Source of the DNA: Strigamia acuminata
Lineage: Eukaryota
NCBI GenBank assembly: GCA_949358305.1
Contig: OX442314.1
Coordinates: 3,286,001 to 3,350,000 of the forward strand
DNA: 64,000 nt
Direction: 5' to 3'
Shown: piece by piece, positions 7,059 to 39,479 of the stretch
Position numbering within the stretch: the first letter of the stretch is position 1
Layout of the letters: each line of letters begins with the position of its first letter
Notes under the pieces: generated by a model
The model's input: only the letters and a program-made list of their open reading frames with translations
Told to the model about the DNA's origin: nothing
The model's database searches: none
Made by a program: the position numbers and the translations under genes

Positions 7059-7076
7059 AACCATCCTCTGCTACCA
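7059..7076 (-). promoter_or_regulatory. PBS of Copia B (initiator tRNA-Met 3' end)
   Basis: Plus strand AACCATCCTCTGCTACCA equals the last 18 nt of metazoan tRNA-iMet; directly abuts the 5' LTR. Confidence 0.93.
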
Positions 7077-7935: not shown

Positions 7936-7940
7936 CAAAC

Positions 7941-8104
7941 ACATAGACGTGAAATTGCATTTCTTGCGCGACTGGTTCGAGAAAGGTGTTTTTCGAATCA
8001 GGCACATCCCAGGGACCCTCAACGTCGCCGACATTATGACAAAGTGGTTGTCCCGCGCAAAATTGGACGCGTTGTGCGAGCACATTTTTGTCGCGACAAA
8101 TTGA
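7941..8104 (+). pseudogene. Copia A RNase H C-terminus (continuation after B)
   Basis: HIDVKLHFLRDWFEKGVFRIRHIPGTLNVADIMTKWL..., stop at 8102-8104; matches the C-terminus of G. Confidence 0.92.
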
Positions 8105-8121
8105 TTAATCGAAGGGGGATT

Positions 8122-8554
8122 TATTAGTATGCGATTAATTATTTTGTCCGTTTCCCCATGCATTTCTGGATAGGCATGGCAGATATGTGTGTTGGCATCC
8201 TTTGGATACCCGTGTAGCGCATATTAATGCTACTCTTATGTGTTAACACACATATTCTATGTTTCTTGTGTCGTCTGCTTGAGAAAGCGATAAATGTTGT
8301 TTTCCGTGTTGTTTATCGGTTACTTATGCCTAGGTTAACAATTACTTATATTGTAAAGAACAAATCAATGCTTGTTGCTATTGATTTGTCCTATTGTCAT
8401 ATTTTGTATGGTTTGAGACCAATTAGCCTCAAACCCAGTTGCTTTTATGTTTTCATGTGATTAAAACATGGCGGGCGCGAAGTGCGAGCTCCCCGCACAT
8501 TTTAAGCTGGTTTCAACTCCTTTCCGATGTTTCCTGGCCTCCACGGACTTATCA
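8122..8554 (+). repeat. Copia A 3' LTR
   Basis: Follows the PPT; recognisably similar to the G LTR (reverse complement of 58855-59320); starts TATTAG (G has TGTTGG), ends TCA at the satellite. Confidence 0.75.
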
Positions 8555-10132: not shown

Positions 10133-10289
10133 TCTGTTGTTTATCGATGCCAAACAGTCCTCCGTACTTGTTCTGCGCATTTCTAGTGTTTTCCTGCATC
10201 AAGCAGTGTTTTGTATGTATTTAGACTTTAAGTTATTATTTAGCACTGGGCATAATGCTGCCCCTATCAGTATTATATAAGTTTATTCG

Positions 10290-12688: not shown

Positions 12689-13743
12689 CTTGGTATACAT
12701 CTGCTTGTTCCATGTCGCGGTTGTGCGCTGACGCTTTAACTTGTCAATATCGGCCATATTTCAACAAAAATTGTTCGACTTACAGTTTTTTGTTCAATCT
12801 CCGGTTCAAACCAATGTGCCGGGTTTCGGCACCAATGTTAAATCCCTCTCGTAACACACTGCAGTCGAGTTCTTGTTTAAAAATTCGTATTGTTGTCGTA
12901 CAAAAAAATCACCTTTTGTTGTATCCAAATCGTCCGGTTTGTTCGCAAAAAGAGTCGCCTTTTTGTAGTCTCAAAATAGTTCGTATTTGCAGGTCAGTTT
13001 CCAACCAGTCTCGGTTGAAAAAGTGTAACAGTCCTTTAGATGTGAAGAAAACACACACACACTCAGGTTAAAGTAAATGTTGCACACTGATTTTATTCTT
13101 GTTTCTACAGACTACCGTATATCTGCAAATAGCACACCCGTGCGCTATTTGCCAAAATTTTTTTTTAACCGCGCGCTATTAGAGGCCCGTGGGCTATTAG
13201 AAGCCCGCGGTTTATTTCAAATCTGAAAAATTGTAACGAAACGTATGGATGACGAATTGATTAAAAATTGTATTAAGTTTATTCTGAATCGATTAACATT
13301 TCCTCATTTTCCTCATTTTCCTCATCACCTTCTTCAACACGGAGACACACCGAATTTCTTTGCAGCCTTTTCGCCGGAATTCTCCTTGGCATACTGAATT
13401 GCTGCCAACTTAAAGCTGAGATCAAACGAACGTGGCATCTTGAAGCACAATACTACTCAATCCAAACTGTGCTACTTATATACTGGTACCAACAATTGAA
13501 ACGTTTCCGAGACATAACACCAATTATGATACGTCTCGGTAATGTAACAATTTGCCCCGTGCGCTAAACAAGGTCCGCGCCTTATTTGTAAAAACGACTT
13601 TGACCCCGTGTATTACTTAAGGTCCGTGGGCTATTAAGGGCCCGTGTAGTAATCGACAATATACGGTATATATCTAATCAAATGAGGTTAATTGGTTGTT
13701 CACCATTGGTGAAACAAAATACAAAGAAAATGAAAAATAATAG
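12689..13743 (-). mobile_element. BEL/Pao-like remnant: split 5' LTR, tRNA-Phe PBS and gag start
   Basis: Minus strand: LTR end ...TTAACA (12836), PBS TGGTGCCGAAACCCGG (12819-12834), then ATG 12757 MADIDKLKRQRTTA. LTR has AATAAA and a GT-rich U5; interrupted by the pogo element and Gypsy F, with probable TGTAAA start displaced to 41970-41975. Confidence 0.6.
13115..13666 (-). mobile_element. Internally deleted pogo/Tigger-like (Tc1-mariner) DNA transposon, 552 bp
   Basis: TA-CCGTATAT...ATATACGG-TA termini with TA TSD; subterminal CCCGTG(G/C)GCTATT repeats; minus-strand remnant 13438-13279 MPRSFDLSFKLAAIQYAKENSGEKAAKKFGVS (Brinker-type HTH start) joined out of frame to an acidic tail. Confidence 0.8.
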
Positions 13744-13998
13744 TGTGGAGTTTTTCGGGTGTAACGGGCGATAACGATCGCCAGGGGGCGGGCGGACACA
13801 AACGGAATATGTCCGATAAACGTTTTGGGGGTGAACAGCCAATTGGGGGCCGTTCTTTGTAATCAACCAATCAGGGTTGACCAGTCTGATATATAATCAG
13901 TTTGTTTTGTTTAATAAAATCACTTGAAGTTAACTAGAGCTTGTAGTTGTGTCTTGGTAATTTTGGGTCAGCTAGTCTCAGCTTTGAGATTGTTTACA
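13744..13998 (+). repeat. Gypsy F 5' LTR
   Basis: TG..CA; repeat of 41711-41965 with about 6 mismatches by eye. Confidence 0.95.
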
Positions 13999-14011
13999 TC
14001 AGAAGTGGGAT
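13999..14011 (+). promoter_or_regulatory. PBS of Gypsy F (tRNA-Leu, lacking the 3'-terminal 5 nt match)
   Basis: TCAGAAGTGGGAT is complementary to tRNA-Leu ...ATCCCACTTCTGA(CACCA). Confidence 0.75.
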
Positions 14012-14198
14012 AGAAGGATTCGATGCGACGATAGACGATAAAGTAGACGAGAAAGTAGAAGAAGTAAGAGGCGACAACTGTTTTTGGCGACGGGAACGAA
14101 AATCGGGGTAACAAATAGCGCGTGGACGGTTCGGGAAACAAGAGACGATTCGCCGAATAAACACGTGCTACGAAGGTTAGCCGAACTTCGAACGAGAG

Positions 14199-15738
14199 AT
14201 GGCCGACGCGGAAGCAGTATTAGCAAAAATCCAACTTAAAGAGATTCCATCGTACAAAGATTTAAACGTGCTGAGGACCCGAGAGATTAGACCGCTATTA
14301 CGGGAGCGGAAAATTGTGCCACAGAAGTTGAAAACAGACATGTTGGGACAATTATGGCGCGCGTTACGTACGGAAGCGGGAATCGTAGAACGAGTAGAAA
14401 GCGACGACGAGGATGACAACGACAAAGAAGAAGAAGAAGAAAAGAACGATTTAGAAAACGACGACGACAAGTCGAAGACAGAAGAGAACGTGTCGCTAGA
14501 AGCAGACGGCGTGTACAGTAAAGATCTGATGATGACAAAGATGTTGCAGATGATGGAAAGCATGCAAAAATCGCAGAGAGAGCCGAAGGAAGTAAAGAAC
14601 GCGCCGAAGTTGCCACGATTCTCGGGCGAACGAAGCGAGCTGCGTACGACCACGCAATGGTTATAAGATGTTCGCGAATACGCCAAAGAATATAAGTGGA
14701 CGAATGTGACCAAAGTAACGACGGCGGCAGCAGCGTTAGAAGGACCAGCGAAGGTGTGGCAAGACAGCGCAGGAACGACGATCCGGAACTTCGACAAATG
14801 GGCGATCGAGCTGACGAAGAATTTTCCAGATCGACAACTGTCTTACGAAGATAAAGAACGATTGATTCGAGCTCCACAGAAGAACGACGAGACCACCGAA
14901 ACCTATTTACATCAAAAATGGGCCACGTGCGAAAGACTGGGAATGTCGATCAGCGACGCGCAGAATTATCTGTTAGTTGGACTAAGAAGCAAAGCAGCGA
15001 CGGCGCCGATGTACGTTGTCCAATATCAACACATCAGCGAGATGGTTGGAACGGCGCAAAACCTGGAAGCTCGAGCGAAGGGGACAACGATCGAAGCAAA
15101 GACGAAAACGAGCTCTACGAGGCCAAACGGAAGAGGATTCGACGCAAGGCCGAAGTGTTTTAGGTGCGGCGAGAAGGGGCACCAGAAGTCAGATTGTCCG
15201 AACGAGCTGAAGTGTTTTAAATGCCACGAATCGGGCCATCTGGCGAATGCGTGTCCAAATGGAGTAAAATGCTTCAATTGTAACGGGTTTGGACACATGG
15301 CAAACGCGTGTCCAGAGCCGAAGAAAGAGCGGAAGCAGCCATCAAAGGACAAGTTGGACGTTAAAACGAAGAAGATTTACAAAATCGAAGCCAAGGAGAT
15401 GCAGCCAGAATTCGAGACCATTATGTGGGTCGATGGAAAGAAATGCAGCGCGGGAATCGATACGCAAAGCGCCGTGTGTCTGATTAGTAAGACGTTTTCG
15501 CAACGTACAAAGATCGAGGAGCCGGACTACGAATACGTGATCGAAGGATTTAATCAAGATGCAAGTCGTTATCGTGGGCGAACGAGATGTGATGTAGAAA
15601 GCGCAAACGTGAAATTGGCGGGTGTCGAGTTCTATGTGGTCGACGACGCCAGAATGCCGACGGAAGTCTGGATAGGGAAACCATTCTTGAAACACCTGAC
15701 GATCACGATGCAATCAGACGGAGGTTACGTGACGTTCA
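14199..15738 (+). pseudogene. Gypsy F gag-protease (fragment 1)
   Basis: ORFs 14199 and 14706 are in one frame split by TAA 14664-14666; three CX2CX4HX4C; protease IDTQS; cut by E. Confidence 0.9.
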
Positions 15739-16299
15739 TGTTGGTCCTAAGACCAAATTTGTTGTCGATATCAAATGTTTATATACTATATGTTTTGTGT
15801 TCAAACACATTGTATTGATATTTGATCATTTATTTACTGTTTTCTCTATTTGGATTTATTTTCTGCTGTCCAGTATGTAATTCCATACTTTGCTTATGTT
15901 TTACTTAGATGATTTGTTCTTTAATTTAAAACTTAATGTTAATAACTGTCACCAGAGTGCTGTGACACTCTTACCCCGAATCCAAGATGGCAGCGCACAC
16001 AGGTGTGTGCACTTTCACATCTTTCACCTTTGGAAATCCATTTATGTAAGATATGGTTTACTTTTCATTAAACTTTTATGTTTTTAAGTGTTTACCTTCA
16101 CTTTAGAGCACCTTCAGTGCTATTTAAGCGCATATAAGCGACCACAAGTCACGCACTCGCTCGAACCGCATCACGCGCTCGCTCGAATCGCATCACGCGA
16201 TTCTGTTATCGGAATTAACCGTCGCGCATTTGCGACGAGCTTTATTTCACGCTTCCACATCGGTTCATTTGCCGATTATTTGCGCACCACTCACCTACA
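15739..16299 (+). repeat. Copia E 5' LTR
   Basis: Direct repeat of 22354-22914. Confidence 0.97.
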
Positions 16300-17185
16300 G
16301 TGGTAGCAGAGGTCTGGGGACGATCTGCTCTTATTTTTCACCTAATTTTCGGCGTAATTTTCGCGGGATTTGCGATTTTTGCGGCGAAATTCATTTTATT
16401 TTCAGATTTCGCCGATTTCGACGATTTCCGCCCGAATCTTTGCTTCGAAACGTTCGATCGACGTTCTGGACTGCCAGGGCAGTCTATTTCACCATTGCTT
16501 CGTTAATTTTGTCCGAAATTCCGCGGGATTCGCGAATTTCGCGACAAATTTTTGTTTTTTTCAGGTTTTTCGTCAATCTGGATTCACTTCTCCGCTTAGC
16601 ACGTTGCGGCGGATACAACGAGAATCCAATACTAGATTATTGGCCGCTTAGTTCCCCGGTGAACGGCGGTTATCACCGATCTTTTCAAGCGGACGAAGAG
16701 CCTCGAATTTTCGAGAAGAATTCGGACATTGACGTCCGAATTGCGCTTTCTCCAGCTTTTCGAGAAAGCTGCGCCGTGCCTTCATTTGCACGAGGATTGC
16801 ACCCGCGATCGATTCATCTATTTCTCCTTGTGTCGAAATTACTTGTTAGCATTAAGATAATATTTAAGGCTTTTGGGGGACATTTAGCATCGTATTCGCC
16901 CTTCGATCGAATCCGATCAAGCGATTACGTATTCTCCGGTAGTGCTTGTCGTGGTACAAGTGAGGTTTCCCGCGGGCCCAGGTGCACCGATCGGACCCTC
17001 TCAGACTGGCTACCGGAGGTTTTTGAATTCCTTCAGAAGGAATTGCCCAATTTGACGGTTTCCGCCTCGAAAGTGCTTCGCATCGAGTGTTGTGCTTCGT
17101 TTTCGTGCAGTGCTACGGTGTCTCCTGTGTGCCATTTCCCTGAGCCTGTGTTTTCGTCGCGTTGTTGTCAGTTTTCAACGCCACG

Positions 17186-20100
17186 ATGCACAAATCCGGA
17201 GATTCATCGAGCAAAATTCCCGTACTCGGAGTTGGAAACTACGAGCAGTGGCAACGATCGATGCGGATGCTCTTAAAGTCCGAGGGCCTTTGGAGGCATG
17301 TTACCGAGGAGAAGGAAGTCGAACATTTAGCTACCTTGACGGAAAAAGAAAAGGATCGGTACATGACCAAGAAAGATAAAGCCCTCGGTCACATCTATAT
17401 CCAAGTCAGCGAGCCCAAAAGATCAGTGTTGGACACGTGCAACACGCCGAAAGAGGCGTGGGACGCGCTGGCTAAGATTTATGCGCCAAGCTCACGGGCC
17501 AGAAGAGCAGCCATGCGTTGGGAGTTTTTAAATCTCCAGATTGGACCCAACGAGGATATGCCGGATTTTATTGCCCGAGTCGATCACTACGTGAGGCAAT
17601 TAAAGGACGTTAAGGAGGAAACTTCGCCCGACCACCACGCATATCAGTATCTTAAGGGATTGCCACCTGAGTATGCCCAGGCAACGTTCGCAATTTACCA
17701 TTGGCCGGATGACAAATTTACACCGACTTTGGTTGCCGAACAGTTGATATCCGAACAATCTCGTTTAAGATCGGCGGGTCTGCTTCGAACAACTCCACCG
17801 ACGGCTCATGCTTCTGCGAAAGGACAGTTTCGCCAACGCAATAAATCCGGTGCCCGTGATTTGTCAACTATTCGGTGTTTCAATTGCGACCAGATGGGCC
17901 ACTACGCGAATAAGTGCCCCCACCCTCGACGTGAGAATCCGAACCCGAATCAGTCGACGGCTTCCGTACAACGCTCCTCGAGAAGTAAGAGTCGAAGACG
18001 GAATAAGACCGCCGTCGCCAAGGTCGAAGACACTCGTCCTCGAGGGAGCTCACGTCCAATTCGGAAAGGGACATTTTTCTGCAGTGCACCGCAAGTCGTT
18101 GAGCGCCCAGTTGCCCACTTTATGCAATCCAATGAGTGGATTGTTGACTGCGGCGCTACCGACCACGTGACCCATGTGCGAGCGTTATTCACCGATTTCA
18201 CGAACATTCCGCCTTTCGATATCGAATTGGGCCAAGGCAAATCGCAAGTTACTGGACGAGGAACGGTTCAACTTCTCACGTCAGTTGATGATGCAGATTG
18301 CGTTTTGGATTTGACCAACGTTCTATATGCACCGAATTTCGAAGCCAATTTGATTTCGGTGTCGAAAATCGATAAAACGCGACATCATATCCACATTTTC
18401 AACGGAGAAGTTAATGTTTATGAATCGGACTATCGTTTGCCAATCATTCGTGCAAAGGAACGTGGTGGCTTGTATTATTTGGACGGTTTGTGTTCGGTTC
18501 CCATCAGTTCGACAACGGTTTCGACGGCCACTCCACCGGTAATTCAACCTGTCAAAACACTGGTCACGACAGAAGTGGATTTCGACAATGTACCGAAACC
18601 GGCTAAAGGAAAACAAAAGCAACGGGAAATTACAGACTATCGTTTCGAACTGCCAGCGGTTGAGAGTGTGAAGGCAATTCCCACCCAACCAATTCCAAAC
18701 CTGACCGATCCCACTCATTTTCCCGTCCTTACTCCCGTTTCTTCACCGGTCATTGTCAATCCGACCACACAGTCCTATTCCAATGCTCTGCAATTCCTGC
18801 CAACTTCCCCTCCTCCTGGCAATTTACCTCCGTCACAGAAGAAGGTAATTGCTAATCCTGCTTCGGTTAAAGACGCCACCGGTCTATGGCATAGTCGACT
18901 CGGTCATCTGCATACTAATGCAATGAAGCTTCTGGCAGCTAACGACCAGGTTTATGGTTTGCAACCAGCTGAAGTTCGACAGGAATTGTCGTGTAACGAC
19001 TGCAGAATTGCTAAATCGACCAGAGCTTCACATAAACCGGACCCGAATCCCTGTACATCGAAACCTTTGGATCTTCTACACATGGATTTGTGGGGGCCAG
19101 CCCCGCTCACATCACTGGGCGGTTCGGATTATGTTTTCACCATTATCGACGATGCCACGCGTTACACGTGGATTATCCCGTTGGCGCAGAAATCCCAGAC
19201 CTTTGGGGCATTTAAGGACTTCGTCGCCCGAGTCGAACGAATTCAGAACACTCGCGTGAAAGCGATCAGATCCGACCGTGGCGGCGAATTCATGTCAAAT
19301 GAATTCTTGAACTACCTCAAAGAAAAGGGCATCCAAGGGCAGAGGACCAATCCCGCATCACCTCAAATGAACGGGACTGCAGAACGCATAAATCGAACAA
19401 TGGCCGACAGTGTCCGATCTCTTATCTCTGAAACTCAACTCCCGGATGACCTTTGGGCAGAACTCGCAGTCACTTTCGCGTATGTGAAGAACCGAAGTCC
19501 GCATTCGAGATTGAATAACCAAATTCCCTATATCCTATGGCGACAACGAGCATTGTCTTTACGACACCTACGCAAAATGGGGTCCAAATGCTGGGTGCAT
19601 TACACCGCGCCAGGCCGCAAGAAACTAGATCCGCGTGCATGGGAGGGATATCTCGTTGGTTACGCGACTGGTACCCGCGGATATAGAGTTTGGAATCCAG
19701 TAGAAGATCGAGTTTACGAAACGGTTCACGTCAAGATCGATGAACGCCAATCATATCGGAAATCTCTTCGTGGCGCATCTCAACGGCCCGAAGAAACTTT
19801 TTCTGATGTCGGACAGCAATCGGTTTCGTTTAACGACAACGTCCAGTTCCATGACTGGCCAAGAGGATCCGATTCCGAACATTCTGATCATTCCGACGAC
19901 GATTCCGATAATGGTGGAGCTAGCCATGCTAGCGGCGTATCGACATCTCACTCTGTTCATACACCGGTCATCCAATTGCCGCCCCCGACAACGCCAGAGC
20001 AGTTATTGTTGGATGCGTGTGCACTGCAATTACCGAGTTCGGCAAGTCTAGGACATTCACAATCGTATCCCATCCTCTATCAGGAAGGAGATACAGATGA

Positions 20101-22144
20101 CGATATTGCTGACTTTGATGACCAAGCCATTCTTCCAAGAACATCTGATTTCACTGGGACATCTGCAGAACAGTCTCCTCGCCAATCACCGCCTGGTTCT
20201 CCAGCTAGATACATCACATATCGCCGGAAAACCCGTGGAGCAGATCTTTCTCACACAGTGTCGGTATTTGACGATACTCCAATGTCTCCTGCTCCAATTC
20301 AGCACATAGTCGGGACAGAAGTCTTGCCTGCTACGGATCGCCATACTGCATATATTTGGCGACCCATTGGGGGAGATTCCGAGTGCAGTGACTGGAGACG
20401 CGAGGAACACCTCCGGAAGGATCAAGTCCCGGGATCGATTAAAACGGACGTTTACTACTTTCCGATGCCCGGCATTCGACTTAGATCTCAGAGAGATGTT
20501 GAGGAATATTGTATGCTCAACAATATCGATTATGAGCCAGAACTGTTTATTTGGAGCAACATTGAGTATACATTGCCGACTATTCCGGGTGTTCGTCATG
20601 CCGCTCATCTCTGTAGAACGGAACCAGCTTCCTACGCTGAAATCCCGAAATTCTCCGACGCTCCGAAATGGCGCGAAGCCATTAAGGAAGAGCTCGACAC
20701 ATTTACCGAAAGAGAAGTTTATCTCGAAGTTCCAAGGCCACCGGACACTACGATTCTTGGCTGCAAATGGCTTTTTAAGCTGAAGACCGATGCAGCAGGG
20801 ACGATCACCAGATATCGAGCTCGTTTAGTCGCCCAGGGTTTTCGTCAAACTCTCGGAGTCGACTACGATGAAGTTTTTAGTCCGGTGGTGAATTTCGTCT
20901 TAATCCGTTTATTCTTCTGTCTTCTCGTCGTGTTGCGTGGTTGGAAGGATGCACACTTAGATGTGAAATGTGCGTACCTGTATGGTGAACTTAAACATAA
21001 AGTCTACATGCGGATCCCTGCAGGTGCCACATGTTCCAACCCCAACAATGTGTGGCTCCTCATCAAGTCACTATACGGACTCCACCAGTCGGGAAGACAG
21101 TGGTTCGAAAAATTGGACGAAACGCTTCGAGACCTCGGATTCCGAAGAATGCCCGCGTGTAATTGTGTTTACGTCTTCGGAAATTCCGCTATCATGTTAG
21201 TCTATGTGGACGATATTATTTTATTCTACGCATCCGACAGTGTTTTCGACCAATTGATCCGACTCATCAGTTCGAAATTCCAAATCGTCAATCTCGGTCC
21301 GATTACGAAATTGTTAGGTGTCGAGTTTATCCGTGATATGGGACGCACATTCATTTCCCAACGTGCTTATATTGCGAAGATTATCAAAAAGTTCGGTACC
21401 TCGACCAACAAGCTCGTGAAAGTTCCCGTGACACCCGGGACGACACTCGTCAGAGGATCGACCGAGAATTTGGAAGATTTCCCATACCGCTCGCTGATCG
21501 GATCACTGTTATTTTTGGCTTCAAGGACACGCCCCGACATCCTTTACTCCGTTATTCACTTATCGCAGTATAATACCTGTTACAATAAGACCCACATTCG
21601 AGCATTACTTCAAGTCTTGCAGTACGTGGCAAACACCGCAGACTTTTGTATCGAACTATCGGGCTGTACATCTTCACAATTGTGGGCTTACACCGACGCT
21701 TCGTGGGCATGCGATCCGGAGACATCATTGAGTTTCGGCGGCTATATTACTTTCATCGGCAACATTCCAATCGGCTGGTCCTGTCGTAAACAGTCGACCG
21801 TGGCATGCTCAACAATGGAAGCAGAATTTATCGCCCTTGTTGAGTGTGTCAAGGAGCTTTACTGGTTGGACCACGTTTATCTTCAGTTTCCGATCCTCAA
21901 CCGATTATCGCGACCCGTCATTTATTCCGACGCTCTCTCGGCCATACAGTTTACTTCCAACGATGTCGAAACTTCAAAAACTCGACATATTCGTGTACGA
22001 TATCACTGGCTCAGGGAGTGGTATACGGCGGGACGTTTCGAACTCCGAAAAGTGCCCGGCGACCTGAACGTCGCCGACATCTTCACGAAGTGGCTCGGAT
22101 CGGAACGTTTACAATCGTTGATTTCTCGGATTTTCCGATTGTAA
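17186..22144 (+). CDS. Copia E polyprotein (gag, protease, integrase, MBD-like, RT, RNase H)
   Basis: First ATG 17186; CFNCDQMGHYANKC, VDCGATDH, WHSRLGH..CNDC, intact D-D-E (LHMDLW, RSDRGGEF, AERINR), VYVDD, YTDASW. Confidence 0.96.
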   Translation: MHKSGDSSSKIPVLGVGNYEQWQRSMRMLLKSEGLWRHVTEEKEVEHLATLTEKEKDRYMTKKDKALGHIYIQVSEPKRSVLDTCNTPKEAWDALAKIYAPSSRARRAAMRWEFLNLQIGPNEDMPDFIARVDHYVRQLKDVKEETSPDHHAYQYLKGLPPEYAQATFAIYHWPDDKFTPTLVAEQLISEQSRLRSAGLLRTTPPTAHASAKGQFRQRNKSGARDLSTIRCFNCDQMGHYANKCPHPRRENPNPNQSTASVQRSSRSKSRRRNKTAVAKVEDTRPRGSSRPIRKGTFFCSAPQVVERPVAHFMQSNEWIVDCGATDHVTHVRALFTDFTNIPPFDIELGQGKSQVTGRGTVQLLTSVDDADCVLDLTNVLYAPNFEANLISVSKIDKTRHHIHIFNGEVNVYESDYRLPIIRAKERGGLYYLDGLCSVPISSTTVSTATPPVIQPVKTLVTTEVDFDNVPKPAKGKQKQREITDYRFELPAVESVKAIPTQPIPNLTDPTHFPVLTPVSSPVIVNPTTQSYSNALQFLPTSPPPGNLPPSQKKVIANPASVKDATGLWHSRLGHLHTNAMKLLAANDQVYGLQPAEVRQELSCNDCRIAKSTRASHKPDPNPCTSKPLDLLHMDLWGPAPLTSLGGSDYVFTIIDDATRYTWIIPLAQKSQTFGAFKDFVARVERIQNTRVKAIRSDRGGEFMSNEFLNYLKEKGIQGQRTNPASPQMNGTAERINRTMADSVRSLISETQLPDDLWAELAVTFAYVKNRSPHSRLNNQIPYILWRQRALSLRHLRKMGSKCWVHYTAPGRKKLDPRAWEGYLVGYATGTRGYRVWNPVEDRVYETVHVKIDERQSYRKSLRGASQRPEETFSDVGQQSVSFNDNVQFHDWPRGSDSEHSDHSDDDSDNGGASHASGVSTSHSVHTPVIQLPPPTTPEQLLLDACALQLPSSASLGHSQSYPILYQEGDTDDDIADFDDQAILPRTSDFTGTSAEQSPRQSPPGSPARYITYRRKTRGADLSHTVSVFDDTPMSPAPIQHIVGTEVLPATDRHTAYIWRPIGGDSECSDWRREEHLRKDQVPGSIKTDVYYFPMPGIRLRSQRDVEEYCMLNNIDYEPELFIWSNIEYTLPTIPGVRHAAHLCRTEPASYAEIPKFSDAPKWREAIKEELDTFTEREVYLEVPRPPDTTILGCKWLFKLKTDAAGTITRYRARLVAQGFRQTLGVDYDEVFSPVVNFVLIRLFFCLLVVLRGWKDAHLDVKCAYLYGELKHKVYMRIPAGATCSNPNNVWLLIKSLYGLHQSGRQWFEKLDETLRDLGFRRMPACNCVYVFGNSAIMLVYVDDIILFYASDSVFDQLIRLISSKFQIVNLGPITKLLGVEFIRDMGRTFISQRAYIAKIIKKFGTSTNKLVKVPVTPGTTLVRGSTENLEDFPYRSLIGSLLFLASRTRPDILYSVIHLSQYNTCYNKTHIRALLQVLQYVANTADFCIELSGCTSSQLWAYTDASWACDPETSLSFGGYITFIGNIPIGWSCRKQSTVACSTMEAEFIALVECVKELYWLDHVYLQFPILNRLSRPVIYSDALSAIQFTSNDVETSKTRHIRVRYHWLREWYTAGRFELRKVPGDLNVADIFTKWLGSERLQSLISRIFRL
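20387..20560 (+). other. MBD-like domain in Copia E
   Basis: SDWRREEHLRKDQVPGSIKTDVYYFPMPGIRLRSQRDVEEYC immediately before the RT start (EPASYAE). Confidence 0.85.
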
Positions 22145-22353
22145 CTTTATCGTGACATTCTTAATTTATTTTTTTCCCGATTGCGAGGATCATCGAGTTT
22201 CAGAGGGAATATTCGGGCTTCCGCAGAGTTTTTCAATGATAGTACCCGGCTCGGTGATTCGACATTATTATTTCCCTTTTGATTAATGTTTATACTATAA
22301 TTCTAGTACCCGATTGTATCTTTCCCCGAACATTTAAGATCGAAGGGGGGATT

Positions 22354-22914
22354 TGTTGGTCCTAAGACCAAATTTGTTGTCGATATCAAATGTTTATATA
22401 CTATATGTTTTGTGTTCAAACACATTGTATTGATATTTGATCATTTATTTACTGTTTTCTCTATTTGGATTTATTTTCTGCTGTCCAGTATGTAATTCCA
22501 TACTTTGCTTATGTTTTACTTAGATGATTTGTTCTTTAATTTAAAACTTAATGTTAATAACTGTCACCAGAGTGCTGTGACACTCTTACCCCGAATCCAA
22601 GATGGCAGCGCACACAGGTGTGTGCACTTTCACATCTTTCACCTTTGGAAATCCATTTATGTAAGATATGGTTTACTTTTCATTAAACTTTTATGTTTTT
22701 AAGTGTTTACCTTCACTTTAGAGCACCTTCAGTGCTATTTAAGCGCATATAAGCGACCACAAGTCACGCACTCGCTCGAACCGCATCACGCGCTCGCTCG
22801 AATCGCATCACGCGATTCTGTTATCGGAATTAACCGTCGCGCATTTGCGACGAGCTTTATTTCACGCTTCCACATCGGTTCATTTGCCGATTATTTGCGC
22901 ACCACTCACCTACA
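22354..22914 (+). repeat. Copia E 3' LTR
   Basis: Direct repeat of 15739-16299. Confidence 0.97.
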
Positions 22915-22919
22915 GTTCA

Positions 22920-23123
22920 GACCGAGGGAAGGGATGCGAGACGAATCAGGAATTTCAAGAATCGAGCCAAAGATCACTGCAGCAAAGCCGCGAGCGCTCG
23001 TGATCGACGAAAACAAAGTGGTACCAGCCCACTCGATAAGTTTGGTGACGGTACGAGCGAAGAGTCAGTCAGACGGATTGTTTTACGTAGAAAACAAGCA
23101 CGCGGTGACGGATCGGTTGGAAG
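22920..23123 (+). pseudogene. Gypsy F pol fragment 2 (PR-RT linker)
   Basis: Short stretch between the TSD of E and the TSD of D, same purine/CpG-rich composition as F. Confidence 0.8.
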
Positions 23124-23428
23124 TGTTGAAATTGCTTGTATACTTGTGTTAATTGCATAGTTCTGCAGCAATGGTGTGGAAAATGTCCAAAGTAAAAACA
23201 CAGGTGTTTATAGGTATGAAATCAAACATAGAGTGAGTTTTATTTCTCAAGTCACATGACATGCCCATAGGTATACAACACCATCTTATGGGAATAAAAG
23301 CAAACACACTTGTAAATAGAGCAGCGGCTATTTGTTTAGCCAAATGCAAAAGATAACAAAAGGTCACGATAAATATACAAAGTGTCACAGCTTGACAATA
23401 CGATACATCAGCACACAATATCTCAACA
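23124..23428 (-). repeat. Copia D 3' LTR
   Basis: Direct repeat of 28696-29000. Confidence 0.96.
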
Positions 23429-23446
23429 ATCGGCCCCCTCGTATTA

Positions 23447-26400
23447 TCAAGCGCTCAATACATTCATATCAACCAGAAAACGATTACAGAAATACACCAA
23501 ATCGGTTTTATCCACGGATTTTGTGAAAATATCCGCAAGGTTGCACTTAGTGCCCACGTGTGTAATCTGAAGGTTATCTCTTCTTACTAGCTCCCGAATG
23601 AAGTGATATCGCACGTCGATATGCTTCGTTTTGCGATTCTCGACGTTTGACTTTGTAAAATCAACTGTCGATATGTTATCGCATAACACATGGTGATTGA
23701 ATTTATCCGCTAATTTGGGAACAATTTCGTACAGCACTCTTAGAATCCATATGTAGTCTTTTACTGTTTCAGTAAGAGCTACATATTCTGCCTCCATGGT
23801 TGATAAAGTGACGTTTCGTTGTTTGAACGTTCTCCAATATACGGGTGAATTTCCGAGCAACACAATAGTTCCTCCAACAGAAATACGATCATCTCTGTTG
23901 TTTGCATAGTCGGAATCGCTGTAGCCAACGACCTCGACACGATCATTTGGGAAGAGCATCAATCCAAGGCTCTTTGTTGTCCTGAGGTAACTAAGCAAAT
24001 CCAGCAATGCGATCCAATGGTCCCATCCTGGATTGGACTGAAATTGGCTAAGGATGTTGATGGCATAGGTTAAATCGGGCCTGGTTCTTGATTCAATAAA
24101 TGCCAAACATCCCAGTAGATTCCGGTAGGAAATTTTCTCCATAATCCTAAAGTCTTCGATCGTGTTGGGACATTGTTGTTTGGTGAGAATGGTAGATTTT
24201 ACCATTGGCTGCGATCGAATCTTCACTAACTTCAAGTGGTCGTCGAATCTCAACAAGACTTTATTGATGTAGGTCTTTTGATGTAACACCATCTGCTCTC
24301 TATATGAGGGAAATTCGACGCCTAACAATTTTTTTGTCTGTCCAAGAATGACCAAATCGAATTGTGTTTTGACCATGTTTAACACATTCATGGCATCTTC
24401 ATATTGCTTTCCAAAAACTACAATATCGTCCACGTAGACTATTAAATATGCGATGTTTCCATATTTATAGACGCAGTTACACCAATTTACGTGTTGCAGT
24501 CCGAGTCCAAGCAAAGTGTCCTCCAATTCAATTCCCCATTCACGTCCTGACTGGTGCAGACCGTAAATTGCACGAAGAAGTTTACAGACGTAATTCTCCT
24601 TGCCTTGGCAAACGAAACCCTTTGGCTGGCGCATATAAACAGTTTTGTGCAACTTCGCGTAGAGGTAAGCACACTTCACGTCGGCTTGGATGTAACTCCA
24701 CTTCAACATGCAGACAAGCAACGTGAACATAAATCGAACGATAGAGAAGTCGACTACTGGTGAAAATGTTTCTTCGTACGACTCGCCGTAGACTTGTGAG
24801 AAGCCTTGCGCGACAAGTCTCGCTTTGTAGCGTGCGATTTTCCCCTCATCGTTCTGTTTGGTGGTGTATATCCACTTGCAGCCAATTATCTTGGTGTCTG
24901 GCGGCGGTGGAACCAACTCCCATACCTCACGCTCGTGCATCGTATCAATCTCGTCGCACATCGCTTGATCCCACTGTTGTTTTTCAGGTGCATTGGCGAC
25001 TTGTTCAAAGCGCGTTGGTATAAATACTTCGAGATGATTCGCTTCCAAGTCAACGTCAATGTCATCCGCAGTTACATTCGACTCGAAAGGCTTCTTTTTC
25101 CTTTTGTCGTCAAAAAGGTGTTCCGGAATGCGAAGATTGTGCTCCACACAATAGCGTTTGACCTCCGGAATTGAACGCAGTCTTGGTTTGTCGTATCCCT
25201 CAATTGTATATTCAATGTCCTTCTGCCCTGTTGGTCTCGCCTTCTCGGTCTTTTTCCATACGAGAGCTGGTATGGTCGGAATTGGGTTTGGAAAAACCTG
25301 TCCAGGTTGTTGCAAAATGTTTGGTTGCTGCACTGCTGGTAAGTTGTGTTGCAATGCATCTTCGGGCAGTCTAAACTTCAACCTAAGTGGAGGTAACTCT
25401 TCTCCTTCTTTCTTCTTGATAGGTTGTGGCGGGGGTAGCGGTGGCCTCACATCCTCGTCGGAGTAATATTGACGGTCATTATCGTTGTCCAGATTATCAT
25501 TGAGATTGTCAATGTATGTCGTATATCTCTCCGGTAGGCCCAGCACGCCTTCAACTCCGCGCCTGCTCTCAACGAATTTAACGTCACTGGTCTCAATAAC
25601 TTTTGAAAAATCAGGTAACCAGACTCTGTATCCCTTTGTAATTCTGGAATATCCTAACATAATTCCATGCAGTCCTTTGTTATCGATTTTTCCATCACGT
25701 ACTCGCTTTTGCACAAAACACAGACTTCCAAATTTTCGTAAATGCCGAAGTGATGGTTTGCGGCCATAATATAACTCCATTGGTGTTTTGTCTGAGTTTA
25801 ACTTCGCTATCCTATTCCTGAGGTAGTTGAAAGTTAAAATTGCCTCGCCCCAAAAGCGATGTTCCAGTTGTGCGTCATAAATGAGCGCTCGCATGCCGTT
25901 TGCTAGTGTCTGATTCAATCTTTCAGATACGCCGTTTTGGGCGGGCGTGTACGCATTTGTCCGTTCATGAGCGATCCCTTGTTGGTCAAGATACTCTCCA
26001 AATTTATTGGAGCAAAACTCCATCCCATTGTCCGTGCGGATGGCCAGGATTGATTTTCCCAGTAGTCTCTCAATCCGTTTTGCGTGTTTTTGAAAAATGC
26101 CGAACACTTCATCCTTCTGTTTCATCAGGTAAACCGTGGAATAACGGGAAAAATCATCCGTAATGGTCAGGAAATATCTATTTCCTGAAAGTGTTGGCGT
26201 TGAAAAAGCCCCGCATACATTCATGTGCAAAAGTTCCAACGGTTGCTTCGACCTAATTCCTGGTAAAGATTTATGAGAGATGGCCTTTTTCTTCGCCAGC
26301 GTGCAAACGTCACACTGCGTGATTGGCACGTCCAAAATCGGTAGTCCAACTACTGCATCCCGCTTGCTCATTTCTTGCACGCTTGGGAAGTGGATGTGTC

Positions 26401-27910
26401 CAAGTCTCTCATGCCATAATCTAGCTTCTTCTGGATTGGATGCCTTTTTGGTCGAGCTACTTGGTTCTTGTGTTTGTTGTGTTTGTTGTTCTCCAGTACT
26501 CGCCTTGTTGCTTTCTTTCAACTTCAATTTTTCAATGTCTGGTTTCGAATCACTTGTTTTGACATAATAAAGTCTGTCCTTCTTAACTGCTTCCATCAAT
26601 TGTCGTTTCCATTGTGGATCGTAGATTTTCACTACTCCTGAGCCAATTGCCACTTTGCATCTGGCTTCGTCGATGCAAGGTCCCGACAATAGATTTCTTC
26701 TCAAATCCGGCGCATAATATACCTTTTTCAATGTGATTGGAATTGTGTCATTTCCCACCACACACATTACACACACATCTCCTACTCCTTGGATTTGTAT
26801 CAAAGTCTTTTTATCTGCTTGGCTAATGGTGCCTTTCATTTCTTGGAAATTTACGAATTGATTCCTATCCTTACAGAAATGCCCAGTGGCCCCGGTATCA
26901 TAGATCCAACAACTGCTGGTTGCGCCGCACTGCAGCATTTCCTCTTCACTCAATTCGGTAAGGAAGCCAACATTCATCATCTCCGTGTCCAATTCTTCGA
27001 CAGTATTCGTGTTCTGGCTATTAGCTGGTGTGAGTTGGACTGTGCAATCCCTCGCCCAGTGTCCTGGCTGATTGCATCGGAAACACGGCCCCCGTGGTGA
27101 TGATCCGGTGGTGTTTCCTCGAAAATTTCTTGTGTTTTTGTTTCCACGATAATTCGATCGTCCAGCTCTTTGTCCTCCTCCAAACCCACGATTATTCTGG
27201 CTACTGTTCCCTTGTTGCTGTTGTTGCTGGAACTTTGGTGTGTTTTTGTTACTCTTCGTGTTGGAGTTGTTTGGCCCCATGCTGAAGGCATCGATAACTG
27301 ACCCCTGGCCAGAATCCCGCCTCTGTTGCGCAAGTCTGCTTTCTTCGGCCACTAACTCCACTTCCACCTTTTCCAGTGTAAAGTCTTTGTCATCCCATCT
27401 GTATATGCTCTGCACAATCGATTGAAACTCCTGTGGCAAATAACGAATCAACTGGAAGGCTTTATACAGATTGTCCAACTCGTGTTTAACGTCCGCTAAT
27501 TTCTTCGCGGCATTCCTAATTTTAGCGGCAAAAATCCCAATTGTTTCTGTGGTTGGATCATACTTAAGGCTGAAAAATTCATCCAATAGACGGATTATGC
27601 GTGCTCTGGATACCGGCTCAAAATTCGTTTTCAAGGTGATCCACGCCGTCTTGGCATCTTCAATCCCGTTGAGCAGCTCGTGGTACTGCTCCTCGATTGA
27701 ATAGTAAATCAAACTAAAAGCTCTTCCTTTTCGCAGCTGATAGTCGGATCGATCTCGCCATGACGCTCCAGGTGCTAGTGCTTCCTCTGTTCCATCTGTG
27801 AACGCCCAACAACCGTGGTGCATCAACAGAACCTTAATCTGTTGCTTCCAGCCGTCATAATTTGTGCGGTTCAACAACGTGACTTTTCTGTCCAATTTGT
27901 CCGAATCCAT
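23447..27910 (-). CDS. Copia D polyprotein, 1487 aa
   Basis: CFRCNQPGHWARDC, YDTGATGH, WHERLGH..CDVC, VYVDD, YSDSDY; first integrase Asp reads Asn (LHMNVCG). Confidence 0.94.
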   Translation of the reverse strand: MDSDKLDRKVTLLNRTNYDGWKQQIKVLLMHHGCWAFTDGTEEALAPGASWRDRSDYQLRKGRAFSLIYYSIEEQYHELLNGIEDAKTAWITLKTNFEPVSRARIIRLLDEFFSLKYDPTTETIGIFAAKIRNAAKKLADVKHELDNLYKAFQLIRYLPQEFQSIVQSIYRWDDKDFTLEKVEVELVAEESRLAQQRRDSGQGSVIDAFSMGPNNSNTKSNKNTPKFQQQQQQGNSSQNNRGFGGGQRAGRSNYRGNKNTRNFRGNTTGSSPRGPCFRCNQPGHWARDCTVQLTPANSQNTNTVEELDTEMMNVGFLTELSEEEMLQCGATSSCWIYDTGATGHFCKDRNQFVNFQEMKGTISQADKKTLIQIQGVGDVCVMCVVGNDTIPITLKKVYYAPDLRRNLLSGPCIDEARCKVAIGSGVVKIYDPQWKRQLMEAVKKDRLYYVKTSDSKPDIEKLKLKESNKASTGEQQTQQTQEPSSSTKKASNPEEARLWHERLGHIHFPSVQEMSKRDAVVGLPILDVPITQCDVCTLAKKKAISHKSLPGIRSKQPLELLHMNVCGAFSTPTLSGNRYFLTITDDFSRYSTVYLMKQKDEVFGIFQKHAKRIERLLGKSILAIRTDNGMEFCSNKFGEYLDQQGIAHERTNAYTPAQNGVSERLNQTLANGMRALIYDAQLEHRFWGEAILTFNYLRNRIAKLNSDKTPMELYYGRKPSLRHLRKFGSLCFVQKRVRDGKIDNKGLHGIMLGYSRITKGYRVWLPDFSKVIETSDVKFVESRRGVEGVLGLPERYTTYIDNLNDNLDNDNDRQYYSDEDVRPPLPPPQPIKKKEGEELPPLRLKFRLPEDALQHNLPAVQQPNILQQPGQVFPNPIPTIPALVWKKTEKARPTGQKDIEYTIEGYDKPRLRSIPEVKRYCVEHNLRIPEHLFDDKRKKKPFESNVTADDIDVDLEANHLEVFIPTRFEQVANAPEKQQWDQAMCDEIDTMHEREVWELVPPPPDTKIIGCKWIYTTKQNDEGKIARYKARLVAQGFSQVYGESYEETFSPVVDFSIVRFMFTLLVCMLKWSYIQADVKCAYLYAKLHKTVYMRQPKGFVCQGKENYVCKLLRAIYGLHQSGREWGIELEDTLLGLGLQHVNWCNCVYKYGNIAYLIVYVDDIVVFGKQYEDAMNVLNMVKTQFDLVILGQTKKLLGVEFPSYREQMVLHQKTYINKVLLRFDDHLKLVKIRSQPMVKSTILTKQQCPNTIEDFRIMEKISYRNLLGCLAFIESRTRPDLTYAINILSQFQSNPGWDHWIALLDLLSYLRTTKSLGLMLFPNDRVEVVGYSDSDYANNRDDRISVGGTIVLLGNSPVYWRTFKQRNVTLSTMEAEYVALTETVKDYIWILRVLYEIVPKLADKFNHHVLCDNISTVDFTKSNVENRKTKHIDVRYHFIRELVRRDNLQITHVGTKCNLADIFTKSVDKTDLVYFCNRFLVDMNVLSA
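25148..25258 (-). other. Divergent MBD-like domain in Copia D
   Basis: WKKTEKARPTGQKDIEYTIEGYDKPRLRSIPEVKRYC at the same position as in A, B, E, G; keeps W, R, D, RLRS and the EV..YC helix. Confidence 0.65.
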
Positions 27911-28683
27911 CCTGATTTACGATAGTAAACGACTCGAACTTGGTTTCACACACGGCCCGAACACTTGTTTCCCCCAAAAAACACTTTCTGTACTGGTAAA
28001 TCGCAACTAGGTGCAGTGTTGCGAGGTTAGTTCGCTCTTAAACTAAGTTAGTAAATCCTGTTACAACACTAAGCTAACAATATATCGAAAATTCAACAAA
28101 AATTCAGTAAAATGTTCGAAAGTGGTGTTTTCCTGACGTTGTCTAGCTGTAGTTCTAGTTGAATTACACTTCCCGTGTATTTTGCAGCTCAAAATTGTCT
28201 TTTCTCGTTGATTCTCTCGTCTTGTGTCGATTCCGCAAATTGTTCATTAAATTCCAGGTCGTTCCCGTGAAAATCCTTTTCCTCCGCTTGTATTATCCTG
28301 GATTCCCGTTCACACTTCGCGTGTGGTTGATGGGAATTTGCGCCGTCGTATAATCCACGTCGAGACGTTTTTTTTTAACCCAAAAATAACGACACGTCGT
28401 CGTTACGTATCGGCGCTTTCCACTCCCGAAATAAATTCCCGAAAACAGGAATAAACAAAAGAAAGAATTAATAATTGTATATAGTTCGAACCAATTATTG
28501 TTCCTGTGCTCCGTGGCGTCTAGTTGTCGCCTCCAAAGTCGTGGAATCCAGGCACAAACACAAATTGATGACATCCATCATGGGCGCCGCCATTTTGGAT
28601 GAAAATGAGGAAATTTTCCCTGCTGGCCTCAAATGACTCAAACTGCTCCAAAATCACACTGGACACTTTCCCTGCTTTATGTA

Positions 28684-28694
28684 GGCCCATAACC
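28684..28694 (-). promoter_or_regulatory. PBS of Copia D (internal/half tRNA-iMet type)
   Basis: GGTTATGGGCC is complementary to the anticodon arm GGCCCATAACC of tRNA-iMet, as in Drosophila copia. Confidence 0.85.
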
Positions 28695-28695
28695 T

Positions 28696-29000
28696 TGTTG
28701 AAATTGCTTGTATACTTGTGTTAATTGCATATTTCTGCAGCAATGGTGTGGAAAATGTCCAAAGTAAAAACACAGGTGTTTACAGGTATGAAATCAAACA
28801 TAGAGTGAGTTTTATTTCTCAAGTCACATGACATGCCCATAGGTATACAACGCCACCTTATGGGAATAAAAGCAAACACACTTGTAAATAGAGCAGCGGC
28901 TATTTGTTTAGCCAAATGCAAAAGATAACAAAAGGTCACGATAAATATACAAAGTGTCACAGCTTGACAATACGATACATCAGCACACAATATCTCAACA
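28696..29000 (-). repeat. Copia D 5' LTR
   Basis: Direct repeat of 23124-23428. Confidence 0.96.
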
Positions 29001-29005
29001 GGAAG

Positions 29006-29765
29006 TACCGGAAGGCCTGATCGAAGTGAAGAACGAGCGGGCAACGATGCCGATAATCAACAACGGACCAGAAGAAGTACGAGTCACACGAGGTCGAAAG
29101 CTTGGGCATGTTGAAATCACCGAAGAAGAACCGTCGTTGCACCAGGTACAAGTCAAGAAAGTCGCGACGATCGAGGCAAGTTCGAGGATGCGAATAACGG
29201 CCGACGAAATTAATTTGGGCAAGTCAGTGACGCCGGAAGAAAAGGAGATCGTACTGACGATGATTAACGACGAATTTCGAGACTGTTTCGCAACGAATTT
29301 GGAGGAGGTCGGATGTTTTCCAGATCTCAAGATGGATATCGAAGTTACGACGACGAGGCCAACGAATTTGCGGCGATACCAGTATTCAGCAGCGCAGCAA
29401 AAAGAGATTGACAAGATGGTCGCCGAGTTGGAAGGAGCAGGATTCGTGACGCGATCAAAGAGTCCATTCAACAGTCCGATCGTGATGGTGCGCAAGAAAA
29501 CCGGCGAATGGAGAATTTGTATTGATTTCAGATCGCTCAACGAAATAACGGTGAAGGAACACTTTCCGTGCCCCAGGATGGATGAGTTACTCGACGGGAC
29601 GCACGAATGGAGAGTCTTCCTAGTGTTCGATTTGGCGTCGGGTTACTACCAGATCGAATTGACGGCTGAAGCGCAAGAGAAGACAGCATTTTCGACAATG
29701 AACGGCAAATATCAGTTTGTGCGGATGCCGTTTGGGTTGATAAACGCGCCGTTTGTTTTCAATCG
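29006..29765 (+). pseudogene. Gypsy F pol fragment 3 (RT N-terminal half)
   Basis: SPFNSPIVMVRKKTGEWRICIDFRSLN, DLASGYYQI, KTAF, MPFGLINAP; cut by element I. Confidence 0.93.
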
Positions 29766-31667
29766 TGTGACGGTTTACAATGGCTATAAATGCCTATTTT
29801 CTTAGAAAGAAGCGCTGTTGCGCCATTATCATGATATCTCGAAGATATTCTGTGTAAAACTGATAAATGTCTGGAATAAAGTTATTTATGATGTTTCAAA
29901 TACAAAGATGTTCGTTTATTAAGAATAAACACTCATTCCTACTTGATATCAAAGGATTCCGGCCGAATCACGAAGAGTCGTCTGCTAAAACCGCATTTGT
30001 CAATGCGCAATGTTGCCACAAGATGGCGCGATTACGATTTAGCGGCAAATTCAAGATATGAATATAAAACATGTAAATAAATATAAAACTATATTTACTA
30101 GAACGAAACGAAGCTTTGTGAACATTAATATAAAGATATATTAATGTCTTTTGATGTTAAATACATTATAACTTCCATTTTCTGCGGGATAGAACATTTG
30201 GTGATCAATCGATCAACCGATCGATCTGATTGGTGGATCCATTTCCGGCCCTGGGTATCCAGTTCCGGTTGTGGTGAGAATTAGCATAATGCTCCTCCGT
30301 ATCCACTTCCGGTGATACGGGATTGGAGGGATTCGTGGAACCCATGTTCCAATTGGATGACTGGATTAATCCTTAATCCAGTCAGGTTATATAAACCCAA
30401 ACAACCGGCCATTCGGCAGCTCTGTTTGATTATTTTCTGTTTGGTATTGTTACTTAAGAAATATGATTCGTTGTTCACGTAAAAAACCTTTTGGTTCTTT
30501 GTTGATTTATTCGCAAAGAACCGTTGCATGATTCTACAGAATCATGCCACCGCCGGCAATTGAAGTCGAAGTGCTGGGATTATTATGTTGCATAAATGTT
30601 ACAGTCTACGGTTGCGACGCCGAAGGAGAACCCGCCGTTGTGCAATTCAGTATCCTCCGGACAGGACCAAGTTGTCTTTTTCGGTATGAACGTATTCCGT
30701 TACCACGAGTAGCATCGGTATTGTTGAGAATCGGTTCCTTCACCTGATGGTGCCAAAGCAGTCTGTTTTACAGTAACCACGAGTAGCACCAAGTGTTTGG
30801 CAAGCTGATTCTCATGGTATTCGATGCCAAAGCAGTCGGTCTATTATTAGTACCGCGAGAGATAAAACTGCTGTGCGGAGCCGCGAGCTATCGACCCCTG
30901 TGTACGTGGTACCGTCAACCACTCGATGGACGACCGTGCTGCGACGCCGGGGACGCTTGATACCGTTCTGCATGGCAAGGCGTATATTCTAATCGATGGC
31001 AATTGTGTGTTGCGACGGGAAGCTTAATCTTCATTTTATTTATAACAGCAAAACTTAAACTCGACAACCAGTTGGACCAAAATCAAGTCAGAAGACTTAA
31101 TCTCATATTGAACTCAATATAACCGATAAGTTGACGACAACTTATTCCCGAAATATCTAAATAAGAATTCACAACGATATGAATTAAATATAATTCATAA
31201 GTGGAATATTGATAAGTAAATGAATACATTTACTTACACCAATATCCTCCCAAAGTTGTGGCGGTGCAGACAAAGTCAACCGCAATGCTCAGATCATTCG
31301 ATTTATCGACGTGCGATAGTTTACACAGCGAACCAAGGAAACCAGCGAAGCCGTATCGGACTCCAGGACACAGCCATCCGGCTTAAGATGACATCTATAA
31401 TCAGGTCGAGCGATGGGGAAACCGCTCCCATATTCCAGACCCGTAGTGATATTATTCTAGGGCCAGTTGGCCAATTCTTTGTATAGTTTAATAGCTGATT
31501 TAACTTGCCAAATGTCGGCATTAGTCCTATGTATAATTTAGCCTTGATATTATTGTTTACCAACAATAAACTGTCTTGTATTTATCTCGTATTGTATTCA
31601 CTGTTTATTTATTGCGATCTCTTCCCGGTACCATTGTTAAATGGGAGTTGTGGTCGTCACCGTCACA
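29766..31667 (+). repeat. Element I 5' LTR (1902 bp)
   Basis: Direct repeat of 37574-39475, one mismatch noticed; TATATAAA at about 30388. Confidence 0.96.
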
Positions 31668-32520
31668 CGTGGAGGTCCCACCGAGATAGGTTGCAATTAA
31701 ATTCAATTGAATTGCAAACAGTGAACTTTTGAGATAAATATTAACTAAACAGATTTAGTTAAAAATAGACAAACAGCTTTTCAGTTTTACTTTTCATCCG
31801 AGAAGTTAAACTGATGAAATAGAAATGTGTAGTAGATTTTCCTTCATTATTTTCGTTTGAAGAGTTTAGGGATTTCAAAGACTACCACCTAATCTCACAC
31901 GTGGAGGTCCCACCGAGATTAGGTTGCAATTAAATTCGATTGAATTGCAACAGTGAATATTGGAGATAAATATTTAACTAAAAGATTTAAGTTAAAAATA
32001 GACAGATTAAATTTTCAGTTTATATTTCCATGTGAAGAAGTTAAACTGATGAAATAGAAATACGTAGTAGATTTTCCTTCATTATTTTCGTTTGAAGATT
32101 TTAGGGATTTCAAAGACTACCACCTAATCTCACACGTGGAGGTCCCACCGAGATTAGGTTGCAATTAAATTCGATAGAATTGTAAAAGTGAATTTTGAGA
32201 TAAATATTTAACTAAAAGATTTAGTTAAAAAACAGACAAGTTTCAAACCATGTTTATTTTCTTGAGAAAAAACCAAAACAGTCCTTTAACTAGGAATTTC
32301 GGAAGTTATAGACCTATCACACGATCACTGAAATAGGTTGCAAATTAATTCGATCGAATTGCAAAAGCGAATCTTGAATCCGATATTAACTAAAAAATTT
32401 TAGTTAAAACAGACAAATAGATTTTCAGTTTATATTTTCATGTGAAAAGTTAAACTGACGAAATGGAAACGTTTAGTGAACTCTCTTTACTATTTTCGTT
32501 CGACAATTTAAGGAATACGA
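31663..32520 (+). repeat. Tandem about 233-bp repeats carrying PBS copies
   Basis: TCACACG-TGGAGGTCCCACCGAGAT with PBS starting at 31670, 31902 and 32137, plus a degenerate fourth unit from about 32317; the 18-mer is complementary to the tRNA-Gln 3' end. Confidence 0.88.
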
Positions 32521-39475: not shown

Positions 39476-39479
39476 ATCG

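Follow-up and report, generated by a model that had tools for sequence, protein, structure and literature searches.

Copia retrotransposons with a methyl-CpG-binding domain in a nested repeat locus of Strigamia acuminata: three of five elements are without the usual tyrosine 34

Can a DNA-reading domain carried by a retrotransposon choose the sites where the element inserts, and does it have to read methylation to do so? The question is raised by a stretch of 64,000 nucleotides of the Strigamia acuminata genome (assembly GCA_949358305.1, contig OX442314.1, positions 3,286,001 to 3,350,000 of the forward strand), called the window hereafter. It is made up of LTR retrotransposons nested in one another and of two 21-bp satellite arrays; a scan of 17 of its open reading frames (ORFs) recognised no host gene. 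A sequence-only reading had seen a methyl-CpG-binding domain (MBD) in several of its Copia elements, and proposed that the domain steers their integration. The elements are CopiaMBD, a published system (de Mendoza, Pflueger and Lister 2019, PMC6673714), and the statement in that reading that MBD-bearing Copia are known from centipedes and spiders was right. The capture of the domain itself is thus already published. The new point of the locus is that three of its five distinct elements are without the usual tyrosine at residue 34 of the MBD.

We found MBD coding at six sites (A, B, E, D, D2 and G), at or overlapping the places where the sequence-only reading had put them. A profile of 61 database domains, window sequences excluded (58 linked to a Copia integrase or RT, and three further transposon MBDs), gave six strong matches in a six-frame search of the window (29.6-61.7 bits, iE <=1.4e-10), and its sole match elsewhere in the window scored -4.6 bits. 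The expectation that the Pfam model (PF01429) would recognise the modules held for three of the six, A (38.1 bits), B (29.0 bits) and G (39.8 bits), which pass its cut-off of 21 bits. E stays below it with 19.1 bits (E 0.001) and reaches 52.5 bits with the 61-domain profile; D and D2 have no Pfam match at E 0.01, and D obtains 29.6 bits (iE 1.4e-10) with that same profile, which all six pass. Leave-one-out profiles placed D, E, B and G each correctly, with 0 of 300 shuffles reaching the score in any of these cases. The G domain has MBD1 (1d9n, E 7e-8) as its best PDB sequence match, from which the residue numbers 22, 32, 34 and 44 used here are taken. A homologue search with the G MBD region gave no match among 43 candidates, and ESM Atlas gave no usable match for that of D.

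Structure prediction gave rankings rather than significant matches. The AF2 model of the E domain (pLDDT 76.7) has the strand-strand-helix layout of MBDs, and a Foldseek search with it ranks MBD or TAM domains in each of its top 12 rows, though no row reaches E<=0.001; the top six rows of a VIA-align search with the AF2 model of D are MBDs at a weak Z of 3.0-3.8, none at Z>=5, so that in both searches the ranking alone is informative. Taken with the matches to Pfam and to the 61-domain profile, these rankings bear out the identification of the modules as MBDs.

The proposed position between integrase and RT was also confirmed. The RT start motif follows the MBD in frame after 15-39 residues in all six copies. 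In B, E, D, D2 and G the MBD comes 95-212 residues after the integrase SH3 domain, behind a low-complexity linker, and the integrase of A lies outside the window. A hydrophobic stretch directly before the RT start, which recurs in relatives, presumably resembles a Copia protease site; cleavage there would separate the MBD from RT and keep it with the integrase. The full Copia domain order is present in B, E, D and G, and part of it in A and D2.

Element E (15739..22914, plus strand) has two 561-bp LTRs (15739-16299 and 22354-22914, their ends set by the GTTCA target-site duplication) and a single open gag-PR-IN-MBD-RT-RH frame (17144-22141). Its LTRs show 0 differences and its catalytic motifs DDE and YVDD are intact, as had been noticed from the sequence. 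The MBD core (20393..20548, plus strand) has R22 at 20414-16, D32 at 20447-49, Y34 at 20453-55 and R44 at 20483-85. Here and in the other integrases, the DDE positions are those taken to be the catalytic ones. Element A is represented by its 3' part (2..8554, plus strand), with MBD-RT at 2-1144, an in-frame stop at 1145-1147, a canonical MBD core (101..253, plus strand; Y34 at 158-160), an RNase H interrupted by the insertion of B, and a 3' LTR (about 8122-8554) whose CA end lies directly at the satellite. Its sister G (58855..64000, minus strand; 83% DNA identity) has intact DDE and YVDD motifs, an open frame that leaves the window (59341-63999), a 3' LTR at about 58855-59320 and an MBD core at 60934..61086 (minus strand; Trp34 at 61027-29).

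Element B (1686..7935, minus strand) has 859-bp LTRs with one difference, a CAAAC target-site duplication and an open frame (2583-7028) in which the second DDE position is not acidic; its MBD core (4224..4379, minus strand) has Leu34 at 4320-22 and Lys44 at 4287-89. Element D (23124..29000, minus strand) has 305-bp LTRs with four differences, a GGAAG target-site duplication and an open frame (23450-27916), and its MBD core (25112..25258, minus strand) has a short loop of spider type and Glu34 at 25211-13. D2 (46345-49686) and D3 (58042-58854) are a single broken second copy of D, split by Gypsy-2 and entered by G. The D2 core (47392..47538, minus strand) is identical to that of D in protein, and both copies are without the acidic residue at the first DDE position. 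The primer sites of B (7066-7076) and E (16301-16311) are of a common type, which in E we take to be that of the iMet 3' end, and the site of D (28683-28694) is of another, presumably the copia-type internal iMet; the D site is a single match at a level reached in 14 of 100 shuffles.

The insertions can be ordered by their LTR pairs and target-site duplications: B entered the RNase H of A; Gypsy-1 (13743..41965, plus strand; 8.6-9.6 CpG per 100 bp) received E, D and an element without MBD, X; and the second copy of D received Gypsy-2 and G. X (29766-39475) has 1.9-kb LTRs with one difference and a target-site duplication of 4 bp (ATCG); tandem repeats follow its 5' LTR, and its one ORF (35441-36958, 506 aa) contains an internal repeat. 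This ORF has no Pfam or ESM Atlas match and no RT or integrase ORF was seen in X, which has the appearance of a young LTR element that is non-autonomous and carries an orphan gene. Gypsy-2 (49687-58041, minus strand) has identical LTRs and separate frames for a gag-like protein (55517-56890, no Pfam match) and pol (51474-55553). Fragment C (10397-12736) is related to E and has gag and protease only, with no integrase, MBD or RT match. The unstranded 21-bp satellite forms two arrays (8556..10180 and 43060-46080) with the same right flank; it is 71% GC, GpC-free and open in all six frames, and the first array, which abuts the 3' LTR of A, has 18.6 CpG per 100 bp and 74 of 75 units identical. At 46101-46345 the flank of the satellite meets 149 bp of Gypsy-1 gag (14311-14459) and the RT of D2, which is truncated; such a junction suggests that the locus was rearranged or that the assembly was joined here.

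The elements share their descent with the MBD-bearing Copia of centipedes and spiders. In an RT tree of 54 rows, all five distinct elements and the MBD-bearing relatives form one clade (100/100), and the same clade is found (97/90) in a tree of 59 rows with metagenome outgroups. The first tree took 25 of 120 RT matches, and its outgroups were mostly plant Copia together with metagenome elements. Strigamia P0119 entered the trees as a 90-residue piece, and they included neither a Stegodyphus RT nor the RT alignment of the 2019 paper. The group of 14 rows that includes the short Strigamia piece also contains A, G, B and E, and D belongs to a spider-rich group, a split matched by the two types of primer site. 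Both the affinity with Strigamia and spider elements and the four lineages that had been proposed (A/G, B, E and D/D2) agree with the two trees.

A profile of the window MBDs matched 756 proteins at E<=0.001, and a Copia integrase or RT is also present in 58 of the best 150. An organism name was available for 14 of the 30 proteins looked up, nine from Strigamia and five from spiders, and the named MBD-bearing relatives (from Strigamia, Araneus, Trichonephila and Oedothorax) are all from centipedes or spiders. P0034, P0043, P0049, P0070, P0108 and P0150 are CopiaMBD-type proteins of Trichonephila clavipes, Oedothorax gibbosus or Araneus ventricosus. According to the 2019 paper, its survey found CopiaMBD in only two genera, with Nephila clavipes on the scanned list (PMC6673714); Araneus, Trichonephila and Oedothorax extend the family beyond these. 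The MBD of E is 51% identical to that of Strigamia P0050, and no relative exceeds 51% MBD identity. Matches to RT only were mostly too short to contain an MBD, and the three with upstream room all carry one. A full-length profile search gave 29 distant matches, none with a precomputed MBD, which served as outgroup alone, and no relative was found among the viral contigs searched.

The variation at the methyl-reading residues is the main novelty. Of the motif W..R..G..G..DVYY..P...RS..EV, described earlier as common to all copies, the DVYY part occurs only in A and E; its place is taken by DVWY in G, by DVLF in B, where Lys-Thr also replaces Arg-Ser, and by DIEY in D/D2, which have the short loop. 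Arg22 and Asp32 are kept in six of six copies, and Arg44 in all except B (Lys). Position 34 is Tyr in A and E, Trp in G, Leu in B and Glu in D/D2. Published work assigns the reading of the methyl-CpG pair to Arg44 and to Arg22, the latter held by Asp32. When Tyr34 was put back into human MBD3, methyl-CpG affinity rose about tenfold, yet the authors of that work held that the tyrosine is no absolute requirement and that the first arginine contributes most (bioRxiv 10.1101/338061). The selectivity gap between MBD2 and MBD3 was ascribed mainly to residue 34 (PMC9520026), and changing the second finger of MBD2 from Arg to Lys led to an 8-fold loss (PMC8600091). Methyl-selective binding cannot therefore be assumed for B, D/D2 and G, which are CopiaMBD variants by descent and methyl readers by prediction. 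By analogy with the effects of Tyr34 in MBD3 and of the second-finger change in MBD2, B would be the weakest methyl reader and G and D intermediate, the published passages being on residues other than Leu, Trp and Glu at position 34.

How unusual are these changes? Tyr34 is present in all 61 database domains and, by our by-eye reading of Table S3, in 22 of 22 CopiaMBD rows (PMC6673714); that paper has the DNA-binding residues conserved in 'most copies'. The contrast of three in five with none in 61 is biased because the 61 domains were chosen by MBD score. An RT-first sample of 19 metagenome loci is fairer. Seven of them have an MBD, with Tyr in six; the other 12 comprise three loci without upstream room, L011 with an internal deletion, and eight distant RTs (25-35% identity). 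Tyr loss in three of five elements here against one of seven loci there gives p 0.22, which does not establish it as a peculiarity of this host. The seventh locus, L002:534-737, is a Copia of the A/B/E/G branch with peptide tandem repeats before a strongly eroded MBD, in which Asp32, Tyr34 and Arg44 are all changed. A single origin of the loss, with B, G and D as a clade, was rejected (AU p 1e-97). Since that clade is rejected and A, the sister of G, has Tyr, the three changes are independent.

Assembly errors are an unlikely source of the replacements, because contigs from public runs keep the residues of G and B and because Glu34 is present in both D and D2. One contig of run X1 is G without a difference across codon 34, and two others have 10 and 12 differences from G, none at codon 34, where these contigs start. 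A contig of run X3 has 15 differences from B over 4203-4337, 12 of them at third positions; codon 34 is unchanged, and the difference in codon 44 is silent. Run X6 has no cover of G.

These observations are probably best explained by an MBD that, translated in frame with the polyprotein, tethers the integration complex to CpG-dense DNA. The domains of A and E are predicted to be methyl-selective, and those of B, D and G to be weaker binders of methyl-CpG. After the protease has cut between MBD and RT, the MBD would stay with the integrase and bring the integration complex to CpG-dense DNA, so that new copies would land in CpG-rich repeats and produce the nesting seen in the window. The domains without Tyr34 may keep CpG recognition through Arg22 and Asp32 with a lower preference for methylation. 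It is conceivable, if doubtful, that the changes are themselves adaptive, i.e., that three CopiaMBD lineages independently swapped Tyr34 while amplifying, and were retuned from methyl-CpG to plain CpG-dense DNA as the host methylome changed. In that case A (Tyr) and G (Trp) would provide a natural sister pair for testing it.

The changes at residue 34 might instead reflect relaxed selection, the MBD working in A and E while it decays, or has no more than a structural role, in B, D and G. In favour of decay are the variety of the replacements (Trp, Leu and Glu), the fall of D below Pfam detection, the more eroded domain of L002, and the integrases of B and D/D2, each without one catalytic acid; because of these missing acids, decay stays a rival for B and D. 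Yet the MBD is under purifying selection, as measured for A against G and for the B subfamily. Between A and G, its dN/dS is 0.12 (51 codons), against 0.06 for RT; a limit to this comparison is that dS is near saturation and that the 28-codon stretch before the MBD is constrained like the MBD itself (0.09). Of the 15 differences in the B subfamily, 12 fall at third positions, and residues 34 and 44 are left unaltered. The diverged G and B subfamilies thus keep the changed residue among mostly third-position differences. Arg22 and Asp32 are retained in six copies with open frames, and the DDE of G is intact. B also inserted at a local CpG peak of A, with 12 and 13 CpG per 150 bp in its flanks, a density reached by 1.3% of A windows. 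On balance we regard decay as unlikely.

The density of CpG around the insertions, counted per 100 bp in 150-bp flanks, is compatible with a tethering of integration by the MBD, within the limits set by a clustered sample. It is 8.3 for B, 9.3 for E, 9.7 for D and 6.3 for G (one side of which is homologous D sequence), and 18.7 for A, on one side only, the satellite. The elements without MBD have 9.3 (X), 2.3 (Gypsy-1) and 4.0 (Gypsy-2). The four non-satellite MBD sites have a mean of 8.4, and the background outside the satellite is 5.1 (p about 0.006 by random window draws), although they are not independent, since E and D lie in one target element; the three non-MBD sites give p 0.47 against random window draws. 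A direct comparison of five MBD with three non-MBD LTR sites is not significant (p 0.125), with E, D and X in the same Gypsy-1. The window shows no shortage of CpG (o/e 1.25), and its young duplicates bear no significant footprint of methylation, with transitions at 9 of 828 CpG against 14 of 2814 other C/G sites (2.2-fold, p 0.08). Transposon methylation is known to differ strongly between arthropods (PMC7343188).

These flanks could also result from post-insertion selection and clustering if the MBD acted outside integration, as a released peptide in competition with host MBD proteins or on the CpG-rich DNA of the element itself. The original authors raised this issue, stating that other roles cannot be rejected (PMC6673714), the linker of 95-212 residues between SH3 and MBD could hold a further cut, and the flank contrast with non-MBD elements stands at p 0.125. 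However, the place of the MBD beside the integrase is fixed in all lineages, and the published insertion bias tracks the host methylome, in opposite directions in the centipede and the spider (PMC6673714), so that we hold a role outside integration to be quite improbable. Finally, it might be suggested by cores just 24-28% identical to that of E, by the loop and primer-site type of D and by an outgroup without named animal MBD-less Copia that unrelated Copia lineages captured the domain separately or resemble each other by chance. This is largely refuted and extremely improbable, given one supported RT clade, the same position, a common C-terminal extension, shuffles that never reach the observed scores, and monophyly in the 2019 RT tree (PMC6673714).

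Methyl-CpG binding by such domains has a precedent in the 2019 study, where three Strigamia CopiaMBD domains bound methyl-CpG in DAP-seq, on CpG-dense DNA, and where the steering of integration was the favoured, unproven hypothesis of the authors (PMC6673714). In our literature search, which mostly did not extend to subscription journals, neither a follow-up on CopiaMBD nor a variant without the tyrosine came up, and passages of 10.1101/2021.11.30.470311 and PMC8226279 hold nothing further on CopiaMBD. The locus is a test set for the question left by that study, whether the MBD sets the insertion sites, because one genome brings together canonical domains (A and E), domains without the tyrosine (B, D and G) and LTR elements without MBD, and the public runs are deep. 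If flanks and binding follow residue 34, this would establish a causal link between domain and targeting, and an adaptation to host methylation.

The window elements are closest to the CopiaMBD of Strigamia maritima and Stegodyphus, which have the same single gag-PR-IN-MBD-RT-RH frame, domain type, purifying selection and CpG-rich flanks (PMC6673714), the flanks here being rich in relation to the window background. The short loop of D also occurs in Stegodyphus domains (by eye, Suppl. Table S3, PMC6673714). In contrast to the published CopiaMBD, with Tyr34 in every row of that table, B, D/D2 and G are without it, and this locus unites a branch that contains Strigamia elements (A, G, B and E) with a spider-rich one (D). 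The host proteins MBD1, MBD2, MeCP2 and MBD4 share the fold and the set of Arg22, Asp32 and Arg44, whereas the window domain sits in a transposon polyprotein, and the Pfam matches of the window include no repression or NuRD-recruiting domain and no chromodomain. MBD3 (Phe34) and the TAM domain of BAZ2A are precedents, in the passages available, for weaker or methyl-independent binding after a change of residue 34 or of an arginine finger. BAZ2A has, by eye, a Trp in the column of the Trp of G, but B, D and G keep the Arg22 and Asp32 that BAZ2A lacks. A functional analogy, drawn in the 2019 paper itself, is with chromoviruses, whose integrase ends in a chromodomain, an epigenetic reader proposed to aim at heterochromatin (PMC6673714). 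Chromoviruses have the Gypsy domain order and read histone marks, whereas the MBD of the window elements is a reader of DNA.
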